Shown here in pieces: positions 3,931 through 49,262 of a DNA stretch of 50,805 nucleotides. The notes under the pieces are model-generated. The model had not been told where the DNA came from, made no database searches, and saw only the letters and a list, made by a program, of their open reading frames with translations. Source of the stretch: a virus; the IMG/VR virus record IMGVR_UViG_3300025159_000004, positions 1 through 50,805 of that record; one strand, written 5' to 3'. How positions within the stretch are numbered: the stretch's first letter is position 1; each line of letters begins with the position of its first letter. Both the position numbers and the translations under genes were made by a program.

Positions 3931-4533
3931 TCAGGTGACCATTTCTAGCAGGAACTCTGCTTCCCTGCCCTCTGGGATACTCTCCGGTGGCCAGCTTGAC
4001 GAGCACGCTGTAACGACCGGGGCGTCCTCACCAATGTAGCCGTGTAACGCAAACCAACCCCTGAAGCCGATAGACTTGAAGAGCGGCACCCACTCTTGCA
4101 AGTATGGCCCCGGCGGGATCACGTCATTCTTACGGAACCATGCGCCTGACGACCACGGTTCAGTGCCGTCTGGAGTCTCGGGTGCATATGGTATTCCAAG
4201 CGTCCGACACCACTTGCGGAGGTAGCGACGGTCGCCGACAAGCAAGTCGACAGTAGGTGTCGGTCCCAGCGCCACAAAGTGATGCTTGCGGCGCAGCTCC
4301 TCGAAGAACAGCGCGTCACGGTGGGGAACCCATGAGCGCTTATTACGGACCACTTCAAAGCTACTATCAACGACCGCCAGATCAGTAACGCGAGCAAACG
4401 CCCATAAGTCGGCCTGGCGGACGAGCGGCATCCCGGCGCCTTCACCGTAGAGGACAAGCTGGTGGCCCGTGCGGAGAATACGCCCCGCAATCTCCGCACC
4501 GTCGCCGCGTGGGCTAATCCACAGAATCTTCAT
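3931..4533 (-). CDS. hypothetical protein (200 aa), weak ATP-grasp-like features
   Basis: MKILWISPRGDG... together with YLRKWCRTLGIPYAP and GFRGWFALHGYIG recall pre-ATP-grasp/ATP-grasp segments. This assignment is not secure. Confidence 0.6.
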   Translation of the reverse strand: MKILWISPRGDGAEIAGRILRTGHQLVLYGEGAGMPLVRQADLWAFARVTDLAVVDSSFEVVRNKRSWVPHRDALFFEELRRKHHFVALGPTPTVDLLVGDRRYLRKWCRTLGIPYAPETPDGTEPWSSGAWFRKNDVIPPGPYLQEWVPLFKSIGFRGWFALHGYIGEDAPVVTACSSSWPPESIPEGREAEFLLEMVT

Positions 4534-7500
4534 TATTTAGTCTCCCCACCAAAGAGCAGCTCACGCTTCTGTTCGCCTTTAAGCCTGCGGATTTGCTCCT
4601 GCCGCTCTATAGCAGTCTTGGCTTCGCGTGTTACACGAGTACCGGAGATGTCCTGCGGGGCAATCTCCCAGCCTGTGAAGCCCTTCATGGCAGCAGCACC
4701 CCAGGGCGTGCCTGGCTGCAGGAACTTGCCTGACTGCGTATACACTCGCGACAGGAAGAATGACTGGAGCCCAACGACGGCTGCCGTGTTCATGACGTAG
4801 ATTGGCCTGCCGCGCCGATCATATGTCTTCTTGAAGCCCACCATCTCTTGGAGCAGTGTGGGCATCTTGTCAACCCAATCGCCATAGGCTTCACTGATCT
4901 TCGATCGGGGATCGAGCGGCTCGCCCATTTGGATGTTCCACTGGAAGGCAAGTGACAGCGCGCCGCGGATCATCGGGGCGGCGCTCCACATCCAGTTGTT
5001 CACCAGCGCTGCACGGTAGGACTTCTCACCATGCGCACCCGGGAGAATACGGTTCAGGTCTTCCATTGGCAGCCCGAGACCAACAAAGTAGAGTGGTTCC
5101 CCATTTGGTGTGCGCCCCAGCGGCAACGCGAGACCTGAGTTGACATACTCTGGGAGGTACTGGAGATCCTCAGGTGGCACGTCGCCACGTGCGGCGAACA
5201 CCTTACCGAGAAACGCCTGGTAGCCGGGGCGCGCAATGACGGCTTTGGCTTGGAGGGGTAGGTTATGGCGCATGAACGTGTAGAACGGAATGGCGCGCCG
5301 CAGCAACCCGCGCTCAACGGGCGACAACATGTCGTAGTCAAAGAGGAACTTGTTGACCCTCCGTGCGGCTTCATCGGGGCCATAGCCACGCCGCAGGTAG
5401 GTGAGCCAGAGAAACATGCGCGCTTCGTCCTCAACCTTGCTGCCAAAATGCTCAGCACCGCGGGAGAACTGTGTCAGCGGATTACTTGACGTGACACGCT
5501 CGATCTCACGCTTGGTTGACGACATGATCTCCAGTTTGCCTCTAAACTCACCAAGGACGCCGTGGGAAGTTGCCAGCTCGCGAAGGTGGTCGAATGTGTA
5601 GCGTTCACCAAGCTGGGTGACGAACTCGCCCTGTTTGCCCAAGAGGATTTGCCACGCTTCAACTCGGCGGGGCCCATTCAAAGCGACTAACCCAATATCG
5701 AGCGCGCTATTGACAACATTGGTCGTGTAGTTCCGCGCATGGAAGCTTGGCCAAAAGATGGTCAACGCCCGCTTGGTCATGTTGAGCATCTGGTCGTAGC
5801 CGGTTAGGAGAATCTGCAAGCCACCTTGGACGCCCGGCTCCGTGTACATGCCGAGCGAGGAATTGATATCCCGAGCAATCGCGCGTGGGATCATGAGGTC
5901 CTTGAATTGCTCCAAGCCCCGGATCTTACCAATGGTCACGAGGTCTTCGTCCATCCAACGGGCGCCTAGCCCGATCTTATGGCCTTTGGCAATAGCAGCC
6001 TGCTGGAGCGTGCTGAGTGGATTACCACGAGCAAGATCCGCTACAGCAGAATTCCAGACGTGCCCTTCGGTCTTCGTGAACCCATACTTCTGAACTGTAG
6101 ACTCCAAGAACTCTCTCGCAAGGAACACACGCTCGTGAGCAAGGCGACGCTGGGCGAATAGCTGGAAGGCATCCTTCGTGATGGGCTCCAGGCCAGCCTT
6201 CATCCCCTCTTCAATCGTGTCGTAGGTGCGCTGTAGATTTTCGCGCATGCCTGGAGATGTCATTCCCGATCCCAGCCCCGTAAGCGGCTCGACGCGAGGA
6301 TTCTTCCACAGATGGCGCATATACTCACTACGCATGGTTGTTGCTAGGCCAGCGCTAATCTCCATCTGCCGCATGTTCTTTTGAGAGGCGTCTATGTAAC
6401 GCGCAATTGCTGCCAAATCCGGGCGGTCAAGCGCGAGCTGGTCTATGCCACCGCGTTGGGATCGCTCGACAGCATACGTGATCCGTTCGCGCGCTACGTC
6501 GTCCAGCGGGCCGGTCGCCATCCGCGCAAGATCGGCTTCCTCGTCGAGGATGTTAGCCTTGACGCCGTGGTACGAGTTGATGAAGCCGTTCTTGTCCTCG
6601 ATGTATGGTAGGTAGTGTGCTACAGCGGCGTCACGCTGGAAGATTTGGCGCAAGGTCGTCAGTCGGCTTTCACCCTTCTTGGTATAGCCGAGAGCTTGCT
6701 CCAGTTTGTGGAGCGATTTCTCCCACCCGCGCTCTATAGCAGCAATGGCTTGCTTGCTTCCGGGGATCGCCTTTCCCGCGAAGCGTACCGCATTGGCATC
6801 AATGAGGTCGCCGCCCTGACCTGCGCGAATACGCACCTGGAGGTTCGCCTCAGCGATAGCGCGCGCGGTCAATCCTTGCGCGCCGTTAGCTTTTGCCCGC
6901 GCGATCTGCCTAACCAGCTCAGCCTTGCCAGCGTCGTTGAGCCAGACACGCGGCAGCAAGATACGATCAGGGCGAAGGGTCATCTTGGCCCCAAGCTCGA
7001 TGGCGCTGCGGCTTGCGCCAACGGTGGTGTATGTCAGCGGGTCGAGCCCGACATCCATAGCGAACCCTAAGACCCCCCGGCCCGTCGCTAAGGTTGTGGG
7101 CTCCCCATATGACATATGCATGCGTGGATCACGCCGAGCACGATCAGGGTCGTCGTAGTATGGGTTGACTTGGATAGACCCCAGTTCTGGTAGCCCAGCT
7201 TCTTTGAGAACGTCTCCAAAGTTGTATTGTTCTTGACCGGTCAGCCCGCGCCAGGCGCCAGCAAACTCGCTCCCAGGCGTGCTGGGATCTTTGAATGCAG
7301 CCATGGCAGCGCCAGCGATAGCATAATTGGGGCGTAGTGCCAAGTCCAGGATACGCATCATCAGCCCGGGGCGAGGTGGCTCTTTCTTCTCGGAGACACC
7401 GGAGATGTCCGTGCCTAACGCTTCCAACTCCGCGAGATCCTTGACGTTCTGTTGGTCAATCTCACTTGCGCGCTTCCACGTCTCAGCGTCCATCTCGGGC

Positions 7501-22751: not shown

Positions 22752-22827
22752 TGGAGCCCCGCCGTGGAGTCGAACCACGACCTGGTCGGTTACAAACCGT
22801 CCGCTCTGCCTGTTAAGCTAACGGGGC
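22752..22827 (-). tRNA. trnT: tRNA-Thr (anticodon UGU), CCA encoded
   Basis: A hand-folded 76-nt cloverleaf: acceptor GCCCCGT/GCGGGGC, D arm GCTT/GAGC, anticodon loop TTTGTAA, T arm CGTGG-TTCGACT-CCACG. There is one A-A mismatch in the anticodon stem. Confidence 0.85.
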
Positions 22828-36578: not shown

Positions 36579-36810
36579 TTACACGTGGAGCGAGCTTGTA
36601 CAAGTCAACACGCGTCGCCCACACATGATGCGGCTAAAGCATCGGTGCATATTAACAACCGGGCATAATCTTTCCACACATCCGTGCACCAATCCAGAAA
36701 CTGGTCGGCGACATATGCACAAGACGCAACCAACACCGCATCGTTGCGCCTGCCAACCAGTCGATGAGTTTCACACGGATCGTGTGCTACCGGGGGGAGA
36801 ACCTAAGTGA
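36565..36810 (+). CDS. Cys/His-rich small protein (81 aa)
   Basis: The start was set to ATG 36565, which has GGAGG 7 nt upstream. The stop overlaps the next start (GTGA). Confidence 0.5.
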   Translation: MTYCSYTWSELVQVNTRRPHMMRLKHRCILTTGHNLSTHPCTNPETGRRHMHKTQPTPHRCACQPVDEFHTDRVLPGGEPK

Positions 36811-37913
36811 GAGCCATCGCACCACTGTTCGTAGCCGCTCAAGCGGGAACACCAGTCCTGGCGATTGGTTCGCCCGGCGTCGGCAAGTCTGCTATCATTA
36901 ACAGCGTAGGTAACAGTTTAGACTATGAGGTCTTCACTGTTATCGCGTCGCTACGTGAACCAGCAGACTTTGCTGGGTTGCCGTTTATCAAGGATGGCAA
37001 AGTGTTTCTGGCCCCACCAGCTTGGGCAGTAGCGGCGGCAGAATCCAAGCGCGCTATCGTATTTCTTGACGAGATCAGCACCGCGTCACCAGCAACACAA
37101 GCAGCACTCTTGCGGCCAGTGCTAGAGCGCGTGGTCGGTGACATTGTGCTTCCAAGTACCGTGTCGTTTATCGCAGCAATGAATCCACCCGATGAAGCAG
37201 CGGGTGGCTGGGACTTATCAGCCCCACTTGCAAACCGCTTCTGCCATCTCAATTGGATACCCGATGCAGCAATATGGATCGATGGGATGATGCAAGGCTT
37301 TCCCGTGCCCAGTGTACCACGACTCCCGGCTAACTGGGAAAGTTATCTTCTGGAAGCCCGAACGATGGTATCGTCATTCATTCGCCACAAGCAGACACTA
37401 TTCCTCAACGTGCCCAAGGAAGCCGACAAAATGGGTAAGCCGTGGCCGTCGCCTCGGTCGTGGACTATGGCAGCGACATTGCAGGCCGCCACCAAGGCCG
37501 CTCAGGCCGGGAGAGAATGTGAAGCTCTTCTCGTTGCAGGTTGTGTTGGTGAGGGAAGCGCGCTAGAGTACCTGAGTTGGCGCGACGCTATGGATCTTCC
37601 TAATCCTGAAGATGTGCTCGCGGACCCTGACAACTTTGAGGTTCCCGATCGTGGAGATAAGTTGTATACTGTCCTCGCGTCAGTCGCTGTAGCCGTTGCC
37701 ACGAACCTGACCAAGGATCGTTACTTGCGCGCCTATCGCGTGTTTAACCGCGCTGCTGAGGCGGGGAAGAAAGATGTAGCGGCGGCGAGCGTTAGGATGC
37801 TGTCAATCGCTGGCGTCAAGGCACAATACCTTACGGACGAAAAGCTTCGTCGGGCTGTCCAGCCACTCATGAAGCCATTTGTCCAGTTGCTAACAGAAGC
37901 AGGGATTATCTAA
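36807..37913 (+). CDS. MoxR-like AAA+ ATPase (AAA_5 type)
   Basis: Walker A GSPGVGKS, Walker B IVFLDEIS and the sensor region ATQAALLRPVLER are present. The start is GTG with a GGGGGGAGA RBS. Confidence 0.8.
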   Translation: MRAIAPLFVAAQAGTPVLAIGSPGVGKSAIINSVGNSLDYEVFTVIASLREPADFAGLPFIKDGKVFLAPPAWAVAAAESKRAIVFLDEISTASPATQAALLRPVLERVVGDIVLPSTVSFIAAMNPPDEAAGGWDLSAPLANRFCHLNWIPDAAIWIDGMMQGFPVPSVPRLPANWESYLLEARTMVSSFIRHKQTLFLNVPKEADKMGKPWPSPRSWTMAATLQAATKAAQAGRECEALLVAGCVGEGSALEYLSWRDAMDLPNPEDVLADPDNFEVPDRGDKLYTVLASVAVAVATNLTKDRYLRAYRVFNRAAEAGKKDVAAASVRMLSIAGVKAQYLTDEKLRRAVQPLMKPFVQLLTEAGII

Positions 37914-38650
37914 TGCGTGATGAAGCAATACTAACACCAGGAACAGTTAACCAGTATCTAGTAGATAATATGTATTGTCACTCGTGGAGCATAGTAAGTA
38001 GTCAAGACTATATCATGAAGCGCTTGCCGATGCACACGAGCTATAAACGTACTCCTACTGGATACAATCACGTGACTACACCAATACCATACTGGATGAG
38101 CCCAACCATGACGATAAGCGATTTGGATGATTCACAACGAATACTCGACTGCCGCGAGCCGGTAGCTATTACTGTGGCTGCGAAGTCTAACCCCGGCCAA
38201 AGAATGCAAGCATGGCGCGTTCACAGTTTGTCACGCAATACAGTTAAAGATTTAGATATTTCACGCAATGCACCATATCAGCTACGCGCGGCACAAGCAA
38301 GAATCTTCGAAGAATATGACTATCGTGGCCCGGTAAAGGGTAGTGAAGCAAAAGGACTTAGCCGATTCTTCATGACTATAGGTAAGGATGAGTATGTGCG
38401 ACGCGGATGGTTTTTTAAAGAAACTTTCATGCATGCGTGGCGTCGCAGTAAGCTCATCTACTGTTACGTTTTTAAGTGCCCAATCCCCGGAGTAGATTTC
38501 GCGGATTTCATGCTTGCCGTTCGCGCATTCAAGAGTAACGGTAAGTTTCGCCAAACGGTCAAAGCACTTATCGACAACCCCGACAACGCTGTAGACGAAA
38601 TCAACACGCTCAAAGCTATGCTAACGCTCGCAAAGGGGATGGGTAAGTAA
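37913..38650 (+). CDS. hypothetical protein (245 aa) in a low-GC island
   Basis: ORF coupled at both ends by TAATG overlaps. Hand counts give 20/60 and 25/60 G+C in the lines at 37921 and 38041. Confidence 0.75.
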   Translation: MRDEAILTPGTVNQYLVDNMYCHSWSIVSSQDYIMKRLPMHTSYKRTPTGYNHVTTPIPYWMSPTMTISDLDDSQRILDCREPVAITVAAKSNPGQRMQAWRVHSLSRNTVKDLDISRNAPYQLRAAQARIFEEYDYRGPVKGSEAKGLSRFFMTIGKDEYVRRGWFFKETFMHAWRRSKLIYCYVFKCPIPGVDFADFMLAVRAFKSNGKFRQTVKALIDNPDNAVDEINTLKAMLTLAKGMGK

Positions 38651-39888
38651 TGAGCGATAACCTGCCCGAACGGCTCCAAGCGTCCCGCGTGTGGCTGGGC
38701 TTCAAGCGACCATATCTTGGCGCACTCTTGTGGGCATTACGCCCGACCCCGATGAAAGGTTTGGGAACATTTGGGATTAACCCTAAGCTCCAGTTGGTGT
38801 ATGACCCAGACAAGCTCCAAGAGTGGAGCATAGAACACTGTGCAACGGTGCTCTACCATGAATGTGGTCACATTCTACGCGACCATGCTGGCCGCGCGGC
38901 TATGGTCGCTGACCGTGATCCGAAAGCGTGGAATATCGCCGGAGACGCGGAAATAAACGATGATCTTGCTAGTGAGCAGTGCAAATGGCCCTTTGTGCCA
39001 ATCTACCCTAAAAACTTAACACCACCGCAGCCGGCCGGCTTGACAGCAGAAGAGTATTACGCTCATATGCCGTTGGTCACGGTTGGTATGGCAAGCGATG
39101 GTGATGGTAAGGGTAATCAGAAGTTTCCCGGCCAAGGTAAATGCCAAGGCGTGCATCCAAGCGATGACGATTCCAAAGGTGATGGAGTACATCCCATTGA
39201 AGTGGAGCTTATTCGTCGGCAAGTTGCACAAGACGTGCAAGACATGGTCAAGTCGCGTGGCACTGTTCCGGCGTGGATGCAACTATGGGCGCAACATTTG
39301 CTGGAGCCTAAAGTTGACTGGCGCCGCATGCTGCGCGCTGAAGTCCGCCGTGCCGCATCTGACGTGATGGGGCAAGTTGACTTCCGCTATAAGCGACCGT
39401 CACGACGAACGGTCGTGTTACCAGATCTCATTCTTCCGATCTTACGTATGCCTGAGATACAGATCGCAGTCGTGGTCGATACGTCTGGGTCTATGCTTGG
39501 TGGGCCTGATAACGTGTCAGACCTGGAACGCGCGATGGCTGAGCTGTCGGGCGTCATCAAGCATTTTGGGCGTCATAGCGGTGTTCAAGTCTACGCTGTC
39601 GATGCAGCCGTTGCCAGTGCGAAGCGAGTGTTCAAGTTGTCACAAATCTCGCTCGCTGGCGGTGGCGGAACCAACATGTGCGTAGGAATCGAAGCCGCGG
39701 TTAACGGTAAGCCAAAACCCAACATCGTTATTGTACTCACTGATGGTGCGACACCGTGGCCGACCACGCCCATTTCCAATGTTCGCGTAATCGCTGGCGT
39801 TATCGGTAATGAGCGCGTACATAGCGCTGTCCCTACCTGGATTCGTGTCGTGCCTATTGCTACACAAGACGAGGAACGCAAGCGATGA
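38650..39888 (+). CDS. VWA-domain protein with N-terminal putative metallopeptidase domain (DUF2201_N + DUF2201 architecture)
   Basis: HExxH in VLYHECGHILRDH, then NIAGDAEINDDL. The C-terminal VVDTSGSM is a MIDAS-like DxSxS motif. Confidence 0.75.
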   Translation: MSDNLPERLQASRVWLGFKRPYLGALLWALRPTPMKGLGTFGINPKLQLVYDPDKLQEWSIEHCATVLYHECGHILRDHAGRAAMVADRDPKAWNIAGDAEINDDLASEQCKWPFVPIYPKNLTPPQPAGLTAEEYYAHMPLVTVGMASDGDGKGNQKFPGQGKCQGVHPSDDDSKGDGVHPIEVELIRRQVAQDVQDMVKSRGTVPAWMQLWAQHLLEPKVDWRRMLRAEVRRAASDVMGQVDFRYKRPSRRTVVLPDLILPILRMPEIQIAVVVDTSGSMLGGPDNVSDLERAMAELSGVIKHFGRHSGVQVYAVDAAVASAKRVFKLSQISLAGGGGTNMCVGIEAAVNGKPKPNIVIVLTDGATPWPTTPISNVRVIAGVIGNERVHSAVPTWIRVVPIATQDEERKR

Positions 39889-44729: not shown

Positions 44730-45508
44730 TGATCGACATCGCCAAGTTGCGGTTCAATCTTGACCAGGCCAAGCCTGAACGTTCAACCTATTTGATCCAC
44801 GGGAACTATGGTGTTGGCAAGACGAGCCTGCTTGGCGACATGCTCCGAACGGAGGCTGCAACCGGCCCCGTGCGCTACATCAACATGGCTGGCGAAGATG
44901 GTAGCCTATCCGTATCTACGCTTGGCCTTGGGGATATTGGCTACACTGCCCATGACCTTGAGGAGTTCAAGGCTATCATAGACGATGCTAAGATGCAAGG
45001 CTTAGCCGCTGTTGGCATCGACGGCTTTCAGTGGCTGGGCAAGTTCGTCATCCGGAGCGTGTGTGGGCAGCGGTTGCCATCAGTCGGCAAGGGTAGCGAT
45101 GACTGGCAGAAGATTCATCAAGCGTTTGAGCAAGTGGTTCCTACGCTCCGCTGGATGGCACCTATCGTCATGGCCACAGCATCGAGTGACCGTTCGATGG
45201 ATCAGATTACTGGCGAAATCACACTCACTCCAGACCTGCCGGGTCGCCAGGCAGCAGGCGTCGGGGGCATGTTTGACTTCGTATTTGTGCTGAAAACGCG
45301 ACCTGTTAACCCAACAAAGATCGAGCGTTATGTCCTAACAGCGCCAGTCGGCAACATGGTTATCCGGGCGCGACTGCCACGATCGTTGCCAGCGGAGCTC
45401 ACGCTTCCAGAAGGTCCAGGTGGCTGGGCCAAGATCAAGGCTGCGATTGCAGAGTGTTTCATGCCAGAGGCTGCTGAGATGGCCCTGGCGGGAAGGAAAA
45501 TGAAGTGA
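44729..45508 (+). CDS. Sak4-like RecA-fold ATPase (AAA_24 type)
   Basis: Walker A HGNYGVGKTS near the N-terminus and Walker B-like AAVGIDGF. The ~260 aa size fits. Confidence 0.6.
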   Translation: MIDIAKLRFNLDQAKPERSTYLIHGNYGVGKTSLLGDMLRTEAATGPVRYINMAGEDGSLSVSTLGLGDIGYTAHDLEEFKAIIDDAKMQGLAAVGIDGFQWLGKFVIRSVCGQRLPSVGKGSDDWQKIHQAFEQVVPTLRWMAPIVMATASSDRSMDQITGEITLTPDLPGRQAAGVGGMFDFVFVLKTRPVNPTKIERYVLTAPVGNMVIRARLPRSLPAELTLPEGPGGWAKIKAAIAECFMPEAAEMALAGRKMK

Positions 45509-46032
45509 TGGTAGACACGATGGGAACTGATACTGGGCTGGATGTCGCGGAGCTTTACCAGACGTACACGTCCGAGGAGCAGATCAAGGAATCCTTCGAG
45601 CGCTTCACGGTGCCGACGGGGCGGTATACGTTCACGCCAAAGCGAGTCCAGACGCAGCGTGCAAGCGACCGCTCCCCCTGGCCGGGGCGTGAGATGGTGC
45701 GTCTATTTGGCCAGCTATTTGATCGTGAGGATGGTAGCCGTAAGGGGTCGGTGGGCTTCGATGGCTCATGGGACGTGCGCCGCATGAAGAATAACAAGCT
45801 GGATGGCCCCTCGAAGCTGTGGGGTCAGCTCGTCACGGCACTGGACATGAAGGCGGAAACGGTCGGTAAGGTTGTGGAGGCCGCAGGAGGCTACCAACTC
45901 AGCCTCTATGTCACTGAGGCATTCAAGACTCCTGACGGCTGGCGCACAGCTCGCACTCCGGAGCAGCGCCGCGACTATCGTAAGGCGGGCTACGATGCCA
46001 AGAACTTCGTGGACAGTGTTTCTCGCGTCTAA
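45505..46032 (+). CDS. possible ssDNA-binding protein (gp2.5/DUF669-like), tentative
   Basis: The call rests on its position directly after the Sak4-like gene and on its size. No decisive motif was found. Confidence 0.35.
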   Translation: MMVDTMGTDTGLDVAELYQTYTSEEQIKESFERFTVPTGRYTFTPKRVQTQRASDRSPWPGREMVRLFGQLFDREDGSRKGSVGFDGSWDVRRMKNNKLDGPSKLWGQLVTALDMKAETVGKVVEAAGGYQLSLYVTEAFKTPDGWRTARTPEQRRDYRKAGYDAKNFVDSVSRV

Positions 46033-46179
46033 GCCTTTCAGGTGCTTAGCCGCGGGGCCCGCTTAGTGTGGCAGCGGTTTACTAGCCATTTGGCCAGGCT
46101 ACGCCAGGAGGAGGCCACACGCCCTAGTGATATGCTTGGGCAGAGAACTCCTCTTGGTGATTTCTTAGGAGGCTCAGTA

Positions 46180-46431
46180 ATGACACCGCAGGGTGGACTG
46201 GAAGGGCGCCAGCGGCGGGTTCATACCCCGCATGACGAGAGTTCGAATCTCTCCCCTGCTACCATTGAGCCCGATAGACGAGAGGCATTTACGTGTGTTG
46301 TCTGCTGGGAAGATCGACACGAAAATGTTACGCTAACTGAGGCCCCACTTGAATTCAACAACCGCTCGGTCGAAGTCATCCACAAATGGTACTGCCCAAA
46401 ATGCGGGCGCGAAGTTACATTTGGGCTCTAG
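46180..46431 (+). CDS. zinc-ribbon protein (83 aa) whose N-terminal codons overlap the tRNA-like element
   Basis: AGGAGG lies 7 nt upstream of ATG 46180. The zinc ribbon is CVVC...CPKC. No in-frame ATG, GTG or TTG lies downstream of the tRNA-like sequence. Confidence 0.5.
   Translation: MTPQGGLEGRQRRVHTPHDESSNLSPATIEPDRREAFTCVVCWEDRHENVTLTEAPLEFNNRSVEVIHKWYCPKCGREVTFGL
46187..46264 (+). tRNA. tRNA-Met-like (anticodon CAU), initiator-like features, non-canonical D-arm spacing
   Basis: Acceptor CGCAGGG/CCCTGCT with a C1-U72 mismatch. D stem CTGG/CCAG. Anticodon arm GCGGG-TTCATAC-CCCGC. T arm GAGAG-TTCGAAT-CTCTC, then ACCA. It is 78 nt and has extra connector nucleotides. Confidence 0.5.
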
Positions 46432-46657
46432 AAAGCTACCTGAGATTCCCCTAGGAACTGTCGAAGCAATATTGGCGGGTGGCCACCTTTGTGAGTGTTG
46501 CCGGATGATGCCGGGGTTAGTGAATAAGGATCACGTGGTCGCCTACGAATACTGCGATTGGTGTTTGCGGACGCACGGCCCGTACTGTCATCCGTCCTAT
46601 AAATACAGCACCGCATACTTGTGGTGGGTGCGATATGACACAAATCGACGCACTTGA
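46421..46657 (+). CDS. small zinc-finger protein, LAG-CxxC...CxxC family; start uncertain (TTG 46421 or ATG 46349)
   Basis: Motif: TVEAILAGGHLCECC...YCDWC. Confidence 0.5.
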   Translation: MGSRKLPEIPLGTVEAILAGGHLCECCRMMPGLVNKDHVVAYEYCDWCLRTHGPYCHPSYKYSTAYLWWVRYDTNRRT

Positions 46658-46853
46658 GTACGCACAGTGGGTGCTAGCTGGGAAACATATCTGTCATGTA
46701 TGTGGCGCGCTCGTGGGTAAAGGCTATCGCGCGCATTGCAACCGACACGGGACCTCAACATATACAAGTGAGCACGGGAGCACAATATATTCCGATGTGT
46801 GCTGCTCTCATCTGTGTGGATGGGGTTCCGATGCAGACTTCGAGTGGGACTAG
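46635..46853 (+). CDS. small zinc-finger protein, LAG-CxxC family
   Basis: Motif: YAQWVLAGKHICHVCG...AHC. It is a tandem paralog of the preceding gene. Confidence 0.6.
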   Translation: MTQIDALEYAQWVLAGKHICHVCGALVGKGYRAHCNRHGTSTYTSEHGSTIYSDVCCSHLCGWGSDADFEWD

Positions 46854-49262
46854 ATGAAAAAACCAGATACATGTAAGGGCTGCCCGCTTTACGATGACGG
46901 TGAGGGCTTTGTACCTGACGAGTTGATAGCAGGTGCACTCACCCAAGTATGGCTCCAGAACCCCGGCGATGGCGAGGAACGTAAAGCCAAGCCCGCAGTT
47001 GGTGCGACTGGTGACGACCTGGACCGCAAGTGGCTCCCACGTGCGGGCCTGACCCGAAGCGTCAATACATCAGTCTGTAATGCCTTCCGCTGTCGCTGGC
47101 GTGACCCTAAAACGGGTAAGAAGGTCAACAAACTACCGCCGCCAGCCATACTTAGCGCGGCACTGAAACACTGTCGTCAATATGACGACGTCCAGGGGCT
47201 GAGCAAGATCATTGCCGCAGGCGCTGTCGCTTGGCGCGCGCTAGGACAGGCTTTTGCTATCACCGACTGGCGCGGCTTTGTTGGCCCCAAGCTTTTCAAT
47301 GGGGCGAGTGTCTTTGGGACACTTCACCCTGCGGATCTTTTCCGGGCACCAAAGAATGCGCTCCCAGTCAGCGTTGACTGGGCTAAGATTGGTCGGTGGC
47401 TGGATGATAAGTGGCCTCTAGCCGTACCGCCGTTTGAGCGTATCCCCAAGACGGCTGACCCGTCTATCTTGCTGCCGTGGGTCGAAGAGGCTGCTGCACG
47501 CGCGCCGTTCGTAGTGATCGACACCGAATACGCACGCGGATCGCGCTACCTCCTGATGATTGGACTTGGGTATCCTGAGATGCCGCACGGGATTCAGGTC
47601 GCTGTGAATACGTTAAGCCCTGTGGGTCGAAGCATGCTCCGCAACGCTCTGCTGGTCTTGGTAGCGGCGTGTCCTATCGTCTTCCAGAACGCTATGGCGG
47701 ACGTGCCGGTGCTGCGGGATAACCTGGGCATCCAGTATGCGGACTATCGCGCCATAGATGATACGATGCTCATGCACGCTCTCCTGTGGAGCGATTGGCC
47801 ACATACATTAGAGTTCCTGGCGTCCCTCTACGGTTCGTATCCTAAGATGAAGCACCTTGCGAAAGTAGACCCGGAGCTTTACAATTGGGGCGACGTGATA
47901 GACACCATTGCTGTCTACGAAGGGCTGGTTAAAGAGCTACGGCACGATGCCCCGTCTGCGGCTATCTACCGGGCGCAGTCGTTGCCACTTGTGCCCATCA
48001 TCCTCCGGCGCGCGCAACGTGGGCTAAGAGTCAATCGTGGCCTCGTCACCGAGAAGACCCGGCTCTATGAGACGAAGAAGACTGTGGCTTCCCAGATTGC
48101 TCAGGCATGCATGGGCCGGCCCTTTAACGTGGGCAGCGACGACCAACTAAAGGCCGCGCTCTATAAGGAGCGCGGCTATCAGGCTCAAATCAACAGGGAC
48201 ACCAGATCTGCCACGGTTGATGGAGATGCCATCGCTGAGCTCCGTAAGGCAATCGACCCAATCCCAGACTTCGAAGAAGAAGAGAAGAACGGGCTCAGCG
48301 TGGATGAAGCCCTGAGCCGTATTGGACAGGGCGCCGACCCTCTCCTTGAGGCTCGTGTCATCTATGCCGGGGCTCAGCAGATTTTGACGCACTACTTGGC
48401 GCCGCGTGACGCTGAGCGCATCTATCCCTCAATGAAGCTCCACGCGCAAGCCAGCGGGCGGTGGAGCATTACCGAACCACCGCTACAGCAAGACCCAAGC
48501 GAGCTAAAGGGTACGTTAATACCCGACGAGGGTATGTCATTCGTGGGCTGGGACTGGGATCAGATTGAGCTTCGCATCTTGGCAGCACTCGCGAAAGACG
48601 CAGCCTATCTGGAAGCCTTTGAGCGCGACTGGGACGTTCACACGCTCAATGCGTGCGACATCTTTGACCTGCCAAAGCCCACGGAGCGCCGCGACCCGAC
48701 GAAAGATGCCGAGTGGGTGAAGGTGGTCGGTTGGGCTGGTAAAGAAGACATCAGGCGCACGTTTGCTAAGCGATTCGTCTACAGACTGAACTACGGAGGA
48801 GACCCACATGGCGCTGGTGACATTCCTGGAGCGCGACAACTTGGACTCGACGGACCCCAGCTCGTTGAGGCGTCTCGTCGATATCTTGCTGCACATCCTG
48901 CGATGGCTTCTTGGCGTGTTGCGACGGCAGCGCAGGCACACACGACCCGGCAGTCTCGAACCTTCATGGGTCGGCTGAGGCGCCTTGAGGGCAACAAGGG
49001 AGCGATAGAGCGTGCCGCGTTCAATCACCCAATGCAAGGGGCCGTCGCTGATATTCTCAACATCGTGGTTGTACAGATAGCGGGCGCCTGTCCTTATGCC
49101 ATACTGGCATGGACCGTCCACGACGCCGCGTGGTTTGAAGTACCCACGGAGATGGTCGAGGACTTTCAGCGCGCTGCGTATCCCATCATTACTCAAGCCT
49201 GGGACGTGTATGGCACGAAGCTAGCCGTCCCGGCGAAGTGGAAAGAGGTCGTGACCGCATGA
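46854..49262 (+). CDS. polA: family A DNA polymerase with 3'-5' exonuclease domain and N-terminal family-4 UDG-like domain
   Basis: UDG-like: CKGC...WLQNPGDGEE...PAVGATGDDL...CNAFRC...LHPADLFR. Exo I: VVIDTEYA. Pol motif A: WDWDQIELRILA. Motif B: RRTFAKRFVYRLNYGG. Motif C: VHDAAW. Confidence 0.85.
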   Translation: MKKPDTCKGCPLYDDGEGFVPDELIAGALTQVWLQNPGDGEERKAKPAVGATGDDLDRKWLPRAGLTRSVNTSVCNAFRCRWRDPKTGKKVNKLPPPAILSAALKHCRQYDDVQGLSKIIAAGAVAWRALGQAFAITDWRGFVGPKLFNGASVFGTLHPADLFRAPKNALPVSVDWAKIGRWLDDKWPLAVPPFERIPKTADPSILLPWVEEAAARAPFVVIDTEYARGSRYLLMIGLGYPEMPHGIQVAVNTLSPVGRSMLRNALLVLVAACPIVFQNAMADVPVLRDNLGIQYADYRAIDDTMLMHALLWSDWPHTLEFLASLYGSYPKMKHLAKVDPELYNWGDVIDTIAVYEGLVKELRHDAPSAAIYRAQSLPLVPIILRRAQRGLRVNRGLVTEKTRLYETKKTVASQIAQACMGRPFNVGSDDQLKAALYKERGYQAQINRDTRSATVDGDAIAELRKAIDPIPDFEEEEKNGLSVDEALSRIGQGADPLLEARVIYAGAQQILTHYLAPRDAERIYPSMKLHAQASGRWSITEPPLQQDPSELKGTLIPDEGMSFVGWDWDQIELRILAALAKDAAYLEAFERDWDVHTLNACDIFDLPKPTERRDPTKDAEWVKVVGWAGKEDIRRTFAKRFVYRLNYGGDPHGAGDIPGARQLGLDGPQLVEASRRYLAAHPAMASWRVATAAQAHTTRQSRTFMGRLRRLEGNKGAIERAAFNHPMQGAVADILNIVVVQIAGACPYAILAWTVHDAAWFEVPTEMVEDFQRAAYPIITQAWDVYGTKLAVPAKWKEVVTA

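Follow-up and report, generated by a model that had tools for sequence, protein, structure and literature searches.

It has been proposed that transfer RNAs (tRNAs) encoded by phages, initiator-like tRNA-Met among them, resist host nucleases that target tRNAs, and that changes in their anticodon loops serve this evasion (PMC10264068). The present analysis deals with a phage genome, IMG/VR virus record IMGVR_UViG_3300025159_000004 (positions 1 to 50,805; this whole stretch of 50,805 nucleotides (nt) is called the window), in which an initiator-like tRNA-Met(CAU) lies in frame inside an open reading frame (ORF) for a zinc-ribbon protein of 83 amino acids (aa). It resembles the described phage tRNAs in being a tRNA gene of a lytic-type tailed phage and in having loop positions 32 and 38 (U and C) that are off the canonical initiator. 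Known phage tRNA genes, however, are found in intergenic gaps or in clusters, whereas the tRNA of the window stands inside a coding frame, 7 nt past the A of the start codon ATG 46180, and has a remodelled D arm. In the literature no described tRNA nested in frame in a phage ORF was found, which is absence of evidence only.

Other known systems come close to this locus in part. The tRNA-mRNA co-transcripts metY-nusA-infB and thrU-tyrU-glyT-thrT-tufB of Escherichia coli are processed by RNase P and RNase E. In these, as in the window, a tRNA and a coding sequence share one transcript and maturation of the tRNA cuts the mRNA. Their tRNAs, however, lie outside the coding sequence and the ORFs survive, whereas processing in the window would detach the start codon. 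Transfer-messenger RNA (tmRNA) also combines a tRNA shape and a translatable frame in one RNA, but its ORF lies within the tRNA-like domain, which is the inverted topology, whereas the window has a normal Shine-Dalgarno (SD) motif and ATG and no tag-peptide logic; ARAGORN made no tmRNA call at the locus. Inteins, introns and homing-endonuclease ORFs are likewise self-contained elements which sit in a gene and keep its frame, and the same slot in relatives of this phage holds HNH endonucleases. The insert in the window is, in contrast, a tRNA with no known splicing or homing, and signatures of introns or inteins were not found. When 45900-46900 was scanned permissively with Rfam, the tRNA alone and no intron ribozyme came up, and a Pfam scan found no intein or endonuclease domain in the ORF.

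The tRNA and the frame around it

The nested locus is made up of the following features.

46167-46172, plus strand: Shine-Dalgarno motif AGGAGG, 7 nt before ATG 46180
46180-46431, plus strand: ORF of 83 aa (stop codon TAG 46429-46431), made up of 2 original codons, the tRNA sequence (~26 codons) and the zinc-ribbon body
46180-46186, plus strand: ATG ACA C (Met-Thr and the first base of codon 3), presumed to be what is left of the 5' end that the zinc-ribbon gene had originally
46187-46264, plus strand: tRNA-Met(CAU) of initiator type, 78 nt including the encoded CCA (ARAGORN, RF00005 and minimum free energy (MFE) fold)
46187-46193 and 46254-46260, plus strand: acceptor stem CGCAGGG/CCCTGCT with the mismatch C1·U72
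46196-46213, plus strand: D arm, with G10:C25, bulged A11 (46197) and the stem CUGG/CCAG
46215-46231, plus strand: anticodon arm GCGGG-TTCATAC-CCCGC (anticodon 46222-46224), with three G:C pairs beside the loop
46237-46253, plus strand: T arm GAGAG-TTCGAAT-CTCTC
46261, plus strand: discriminator A
46262-46264, plus strand: CCA
46265-46428, plus strand: zinc-ribbon body EPDRREAFTCVVCW...NRSVE...CPKCG..., with no start codon of its own

A preliminary description, made from the letters alone, had reported a near-cloverleaf here, and the parts it named (acceptor stem, D stem, anticodon arm, T arm, terminal ACCA, three G:C pairs and the 1:72 mismatch) were all found as it had placed them. It had proposed scoring by tRNA-finding programs, and both ARAGORN and Infernal bore the tRNA out. 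ARAGORN called tRNA-Met(CAT) at 46187-46264, and the Rfam model RF00005 gave 38.3 bits against a gathering threshold of 29 (E=1.4e-4 over the whole window and 2.7e-6 in a 1-kb scan). The MFE fold of the 78-nt segment in ViennaRNA is the cloverleaf. The T loop UUCGAAU, the GG of the D loop, U8 and a 7-nt anticodon loop with U33 are present. Among the initiator hallmarks the CAU anticodon, A73, the unpaired 1:72 and the three G:C pairs at 29-31:39-41 were found; the A11:U24 pair of a standard 4-bp D stem is lacking, A11 being bulged, and the anticodon loop has U32 and C38 versus C32 and A38 in the canonical bacterial initiator. Because it lacks A11:U24 and has U32/C38 in the loop, the tRNA is called initiator-like, and judged from its sequence it is a variant of this type and not a canonical tRNA-fMet. 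The extra nucleotides at the D arm, which had been described as an irregularity, are indeed present. They are better read as G10:C25, paired by both ViennaRNA and Infernal, closing over the bulged A11, which is a trait of a class of tRNAs and not a defect.

This D-arm pattern was scanned over 185,579 species, one genome each. It gave a single match, a 78-nt tRNA-Met on a Bryobacterales (Acidobacteriota) chromosome (metagenome-assembled genome OZ252030.1; L056 1936-2013, minus strand), which aligns gap-free with the window tRNA at 81% identity. The acceptor stem (C1·U72) and D arm are the same in both; three T-stem pairs are changed on both sides and are thus compensatory. The Bryobacterales tRNA is intergenic, its neighbours are a tRNA-Pro, an IS21 istA/istB pair and a DNA methyltransferase, and the region has the look of a genomic island. 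Also encoded there is a protein in which pentapeptide repeats and a TIR-like motif were recognized by eye. From this one genomic relative of the tRNA, the host of the phage is possibly an acidobacterium (Bryobacterales). In IMG/VR the exact pattern of the whole D and anticodon arms gave no match, and a looser D-arm pattern gave 32 matches, of which 29 were chance matches, one was a truncated contig of the same phage (L079) and two were tRNAs of the class. Both viral tRNAs are stand-alone genes, one with TATAAT just upstream (L081) and the other in a tRNA cluster (L082).

A covariation test of the class covers four sequences only, and the search pattern had fixed two of the arms beforehand. Pairing is found in 93% of cells and both bases have changed in 7 pairs, a result which none of 500 shuffles reached; no slid register of the alignment comes close. 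Position 1:72 is unpaired in all four members, and the three anticodon-stem G:C pairs are found in three of them. The RF00005 scores are 29.1, 32.6 and 37.5 bits for the other three members and 38.3 bits for the window copy, the highest. Since all members of the class score low, the low score is not a sign of decay. Likewise, because the same remodelling is found in three diverged members with compensatory changes, the odd D arm is a shared trait of a small tRNA class on viruses and mobile elements, and not decay. In addition, the exact anticodon arm GCGGG-UUCAUAC-CCCGC occurs in 13 viral initiator-like tRNA-Met genes of IMG/VR (L033-L048), most of them with an unpaired or weak 1:72 and a standard D arm; those with standard D arms score 50-64 bits. 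This suggests that U32/C38 is a form of the initiator anticodon loop which recurs among viruses.

What had been claimed for the reading frame held as well. The sequence and the ORF list agree that AGGAGG at 46167-46172 lies 7 nt before ATG 46180 and that the frame is open to 46431, and, as described, no ATG, GTG or TTG stands in frame between the 3' end of the tRNA and the first CxxC. The Cys codons of the zinc ribbon are at 46294, 46303, 46393 and 46402. From 46180 to the first of them ATG 46180 is the only ATG, GTG or TTG in frame, and CTG 46198 and ATT 46264 are the only near-cognate codons. AGGAGG occurs 17 times on the plus strand of the 50.8 kb, about one third of the occurrences preceding plausible gene starts at 6-10 nt, and the same motif with the same spacing is found before other gene starts, e.g. 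977, 41530 and 50010. By our own estimate from the AGGAGG counts, the chance of AGGAGG-N5-9-ATG in the right frame just upstream of a tRNA is ~1e-4 to 1e-3. It was found that the same-strand frame is open right through the tRNA in about half of 20 control tRNAs, and two of the three frames are open through 46187-46264. Being so common among the controls, an open frame through a tRNA is unremarkable and means little alone; the perfect SD-ATG is remarkable. Gene callers gave the identical 83-aa protein (P0001) on at least 26 metagenome contigs. The junction peptide VHTPHDESSNLSPATIEPDR of this product spans the boundary between tRNA and body. In an AlphaFold2 model the predicted local distance difference test (pLDDT) score is 55-60 for residues 1-30 and 84-91 for the ribbon, and residues 1-30 are predicted to be disordered.

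The zinc ribbon had been called convincing, and a family of homologues with the same invariant residues now stands behind this. A full HMMER pass over 1.8e9 representative proteins, followed by a profile search, gave ~13 homologues of 47-89 aa (most 47-58 aa, a few 65-89), which align only to window residues ~31-83. The family is rare and unnamed, with ~13 clusters in 5.8e9 proteins (members P0004, P0007, P0008, P0010, P0012-P0015 and P0017-P0020). A word-indexed protein search returned the identical 83-aa protein only, and a search of IMG/VR for the family gave no match. The family motifs are T-C-x2-C-(W/Y), N-V-x-L, (D/N)-N-R-S-V-E and C-P-x-C, with the core N-(R/L)-S-V-E, and all 11 family-invariant columns are present in the window protein (profile E=1.8e-22). 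In the homologues the start stands 1-20 residues ahead of the first Cys. The distance in the window protein is 38 residues, because ~26 tRNA-derived codons intervene, and the protein thus departs from the family norm in start distance and in length (47-65 aa, few 85-89). Longer N-termini are natural in the family (P0014, P0020 and P0007). On long contigs four of four homologues follow a ~215-aa protein and three of four lie upstream of a UDG-PolA polymerase (or of separate UDG and PolA); the zinc-ribbon gene precedes a UDG-PolA polymerase in L049, L051 and L053 and likewise in the window. When the ORF was scanned with Pfam and PHROGs, only sub-threshold generic zinc-ribbon matches came up, and Foldseek against the PDB gave nothing significant (E > 0.3). 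The N-terminal zinc ribbon of NrdR is also a CxxC...CPxC ribbon and is the best, non-significant, structural match (probability ~0.9, root-mean-square deviation 2.8 Å over 45 residues), but there is no significant match to it in sequence or fold (Foldseek E > 0.3; Pfam below family thresholds). On these sequence comparisons the ORF 46180-46431 is a genuine gene of a conserved, syntenic phage family.

Origin of the nested arrangement

When 46187-46264 is deleted, what remains reads AGGAGG-N7-ATG ACA CTT GAG CCC GAT AGA CGA GAG GCA TTT ACG TGT, or M-T-L-E-P-D-R-R-E-A-F-T-C. The homologue L089 has AGGAGG-N4-GTG ACG CGG GAA CCC ATG ACT TGT, or M-T-R-E-P-M-T-C (P0019 M-T-R-E-P-M-T-C), and the N-terminus of P0008 is M-T-E-P-R-R-P-F-T-C. 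None of the zinc-ribbon homologues has a tRNA inside the gene. Since removal of the tRNA restores a family-like N-terminus and no homologue carries the tRNA, the arrangement would be the result of insertion into a pre-existing gene and not an ancestral design. The simplest reading of the sequence is that a segment of mature-tRNA size was inserted in frame, within codon 3 (after codon 2), without flanking DNA. The size of the insert is 78 nt, with a boundary ambiguity of plus or minus a few bases.

This origin was not seen in the preliminary description, which had put the question as one of a tRNA excised from a coding mRNA, a tRNA-like sequence translated, or both. The question so framed stands, as the tRNA and the ORF are each genuine. 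It had also suggested comparing related loci to see which of the two is the conserved unit. Each of the two has a family of its own: the zinc ribbon occurs in homologues without the tRNA, and the three other tRNAs of the class are intergenic or stand-alone genes. Relatives at 50-58% aa identity, found in IMG/VR and JGI metagenomes via the polymerase and the 175-aa protein encoded on either side of the locus, have neither the tRNA nor a zinc-ribbon homologue in the slot; it is filled by other small Cys-rich ORFs or HNH endonucleases.

It should be noted here that this slot, bounded by the 175-aa (or ~215-aa) gene and the polymerase, is an insertion hot spot in relatives. HNH endonuclease ORFs are found in the slot of two of them (L024/L027 ~1244-1642 and 2472-2870), and a phage which bears the zinc-ribbon gene (L050) has tRNA-Ile(UAU) and tRNA-Asn in the slot, at 6131-6203 and 7356-7430.

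Possible fates of one RNA

The only start, ATG 46180, lies 5' of the tRNA and the zinc-ribbon body has no start of its own; thus, for any one RNA, excision of the tRNA and synthesis of the protein are mutually exclusive. The best explanation of the locus, and one which we consider to have about an even chance of being correct, is a dual output in which RNase P and the ribosome compete. We infer both fates and their competition from what is seen directly, namely the two genes, the family membership of each, the geometry of the insertion and the absence of another start. In one fate the RNA would fold as the cloverleaf, i.e. as a pre-tRNA, RNase P would cut at 46186/46187 and the 3' end would be trimmed, so releasing the tRNA; the cleavage would part the start codon from the zinc-ribbon body and that RNA would make no protein. 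In the other fate a ribosome on the SD and ATG would cover with its footprint the RNase P site and the 5' strand of the acceptor stem, and elongation would unfold the rest of the tRNA and give the 83-aa zinc-ribbon protein with a putatively disordered N-terminal insert of ~26 residues. By analogy with what has been proposed for phage tRNAs (PMC10264068), the benefit could be a supply of initiator tRNA whose non-host anticodon loop (U32, C38) and D arm escape host tRNA-targeting nucleases.

A number of observations weigh against this explanation. The nested arrangement is seen in one near-clonal phage species only. There is zero variation over 46033-46431 in 11 loci (10 near-identical loci and L020), so that purifying selection on the tRNA or the protein is not measurable. 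One variant (L055/P0022; contig ERZ4903070, L055 2422-2673) has three substitutions in 408 nt, all of them within the tRNA and none in the 330 flanking nt. They fall at window positions 46220, 46242 and 46257 and are U32G, T54G and U69C, the last of which turns A4:U69 into A·C. The tRNA of the variant is below the RF00005 threshold and its ORF is still open, with V14G and S21R. If the contig is correct, the tRNA is dispensable in at least one lineage; the pattern could reflect relaxed selection, a recombination patch or an assembly error. For a 78-nt insert we estimate the chance of an in-frame, stop-free outcome at ~0.2 (two of three frames open). As an insert of 78 nt preserves the downstream frame and two of the three frames are free of stops, the intact ORF could be a recent accident, and the same may be true of the nested arrangement as a whole. 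To these points may be added another history, in which the tRNA was once a separate gene upstream, the zinc-ribbon ATG at 46264, overlapping the terminal A of CCA, became ATT (or the ATT is itself a weak start), and translation was rescued from the upstream in-frame ATG. ATT 46264 is in frame, and a start there gives M-E-P-D-R-R-E-A-F-T-C, like MESRRPFTC and MPEERRPFTC in the family. This history is, however, quite unlikely: no purine-rich SD precedes 46264 (CUCCCCUGCUACC), a perfect AGGAGG-N7-ATG-ACA would have had to arise, or to be there already, by chance, in frame and 84 nt upstream (~1e-4 to 1e-3 by our own estimate), and the retained M-T together with AGGAGG fits the homologue L089.

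Accounts in which only one of the two genes works have also to be weighed. The tRNA may be efficiently processed while the zinc-ribbon ORF is a recently disabled remnant, open by chance, and any protein from it inconsequential. No other member of its class scores as high as this tRNA, and its stems are perfect; the ~0.2 chance of a stop-free insert leaves room for such an accident; the slot is hypervariable, with decaying or odd small ORFs, the next Cys-rich ORF being also without a clean start; and relatives live without a zinc-ribbon gene in this slot. Such a loss is nevertheless hard to reconcile with 11 of 11 invariant zinc-ribbon residues intact, a perfect AGGAGG-N7-ATG kept and an 83-aa product consistently predicted by gene callers in a family where N-terminal extensions are natural, and we regard it as somewhat unlikely. 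It is quite unlikely, on the other hand, that only the protein functions, with the tRNA a dead passenger, its 78 nt a linker for the disordered N-terminus and its cloverleaf a recent relic starting to decay. The variant L055 would fit, as its three changes are confined to the tRNA (T54, the 4:69 pair and U32), bring its score under the RF00005 threshold and do not close the ORF. The 38.3 bits of the window copy are low versus 50-64 for viral initiator-like tRNAs with standard D arms, and A15·C48 and G21 differ from the usual tertiary pairs. But the low score is typical of the class, the stems are perfectly paired, three diverged homologues with compensatory changes show the same remodelling of the D arm, and the damaged variant is one contig versus at least 26 intact ones. 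The tRNA might, finally, behave like an intron, with RNase P and a 3' endonuclease excising it and the 3'-OH of the leader being religated to the 5'-P of the trailer to give a 57-aa ORF (MTLEPDRREAFTC...). Removal of exactly 78 nt does restore a family-like ORF, and a 7-bp flank helix in the local MFE fold (GGCUCAG 46171-46177 / UUGAGCC 46265-46271) could hold the ends together. A flank helix of that length is, however, equalled in 21% of shuffles, and this leader-trailer complementarity was rejected as evidence for that reason. The scans made of the phage genes, and that with Rfam, turned up no RNA ligase, tRNA-repair gene or intron ribozyme (a metallophosphoesterase and an NT5C-like nucleotidase are not ligases), we know of no bacterial precedent, and ligation of this kind is extremely unlikely.

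It could be imagined, very doubtfully, that the locus is a built-in sensor of initiation capacity, in which an initiator tRNA of mature size (78 nt, with CCA and no flanks), possibly brought in via an RNA intermediate, stands 7 nt past a strong SD-ATG. When initiation is efficient, 30S or 70S ribosomes on the start would block folding and RNase P, and the protein would be made. When initiator is scarce, e.g. through a host nuclease, the RNA would fold and more phage initiator tRNA would be released, which would amount to negative feedback by gene nesting.

Genome setting and implications

The window, which belongs to a novel tailed phage, is a near-complete genome. On its minus strand (~2-33 kb) are the genes for the major head protein, portal and large terminase, and a plus-strand replication module from ~34 kb has a PD-(D/E)XK nuclease, an AAA_24 ATPase, the 175-aa protein and a UDG-like/PolA polymerase. 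Megablast and blastn searches of the region against GenBank phages (n=50,697) gave no nucleotide match, and the nearest GenBank phage polymerases are remote (<=37% identity). The nested locus lies between the 175-aa gene (end 46032) and the polymerase (start 46854). A promoter and terminator scan of the plus strand near it made no call, and it is presumably transcribed within a long plus-strand replication operon. The features around it, and the other tRNA of the genome, are as follows.

46104-46158, plus strand: strong hairpin CCAGGAGGAG / CUCCUCUUGG in the MFE fold of 46033-46186, within the gap of 147 nt that separates the 175-aa gene from the SD
46349-46657: small Cys-rich ORF (conserved part ~46436-46657), the next ORF after the zinc-ribbon gene
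46854-49262: DNA polymerase, a UDG-like N-terminal domain fused to PolA
22752-22827, minus strand: tRNA-Thr(UGU), 46.9 bits, with encoded CCA

In the hairpin 46104-46158 a second SD-like sequence, AGGAGGAGG, is sequestered by an anti-SD-like CUCCUC, and no U-tract terminator follows; the hairpin may not be part of the nested unit. The phage genome carries two tRNAs only. The tRNA-Thr lies in a clean 135-nt gap between two structural-module genes, an ordinary arrangement in contrast to that of the nested tRNA-Met. The ORF 46349-46657 is a paralogue of the ORF 46635-46853 and of the 'W-x-LAG-x2-C-x2-C' mini-proteins in the relative L001. It has no ATG, GTG or TTG past the zinc-ribbon stop, and the one canonical start it has is TTG 46349, preceded at 6 nt by GAGG; from there it overlaps the zinc-ribbon gene by 83 nt in a different frame. 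Nine population single-nucleotide polymorphisms (SNPs) lie inside it (46445-46558), and metagenome pipelines called neither this ORF nor 46635-46853. The strain SNPs come in tight clusters (6-7 changes in <90 nt; 45367-45453 and 47918-47961) with kilobases of identity between them, the pattern expected of recombination patches and not of clock-like divergence. In the relative IMGVR_UViG_3300019458_000073 (L002/L032 ~4001-6987) an HNH/Endonuclease-VII-like ORF (L032 4958-5329) breaks into the polymerase frame after ~144 codons, a sight suggestive of an intron or mobile insertion. At 36807-39888 of the window there is a MoxR-type AAA+ ATPase and, one gene on, a DUF2201 metallopeptidase/VWA protein, a pairing unusual for a phage early region.

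Where a tRNA and an ORF overlap, annotation pipelines and curators treat the overlap as an artefact. Here each partner has the support of its own family, and the ORF of the window is translatable only through the tRNA. If both products are made, the locus would be a natural contest between RNase P and the ribosome for the same nucleotides, and a clear-cut case of phage gene nesting of a new kind. If it is only a recent neutral insertion, it would still record the entry of a tRNA-sized segment into a coding sequence without flanking DNA. The D-arm class, on viruses and genomic islands, provides candidates for tRNAs which may escape host defences that target tRNA.

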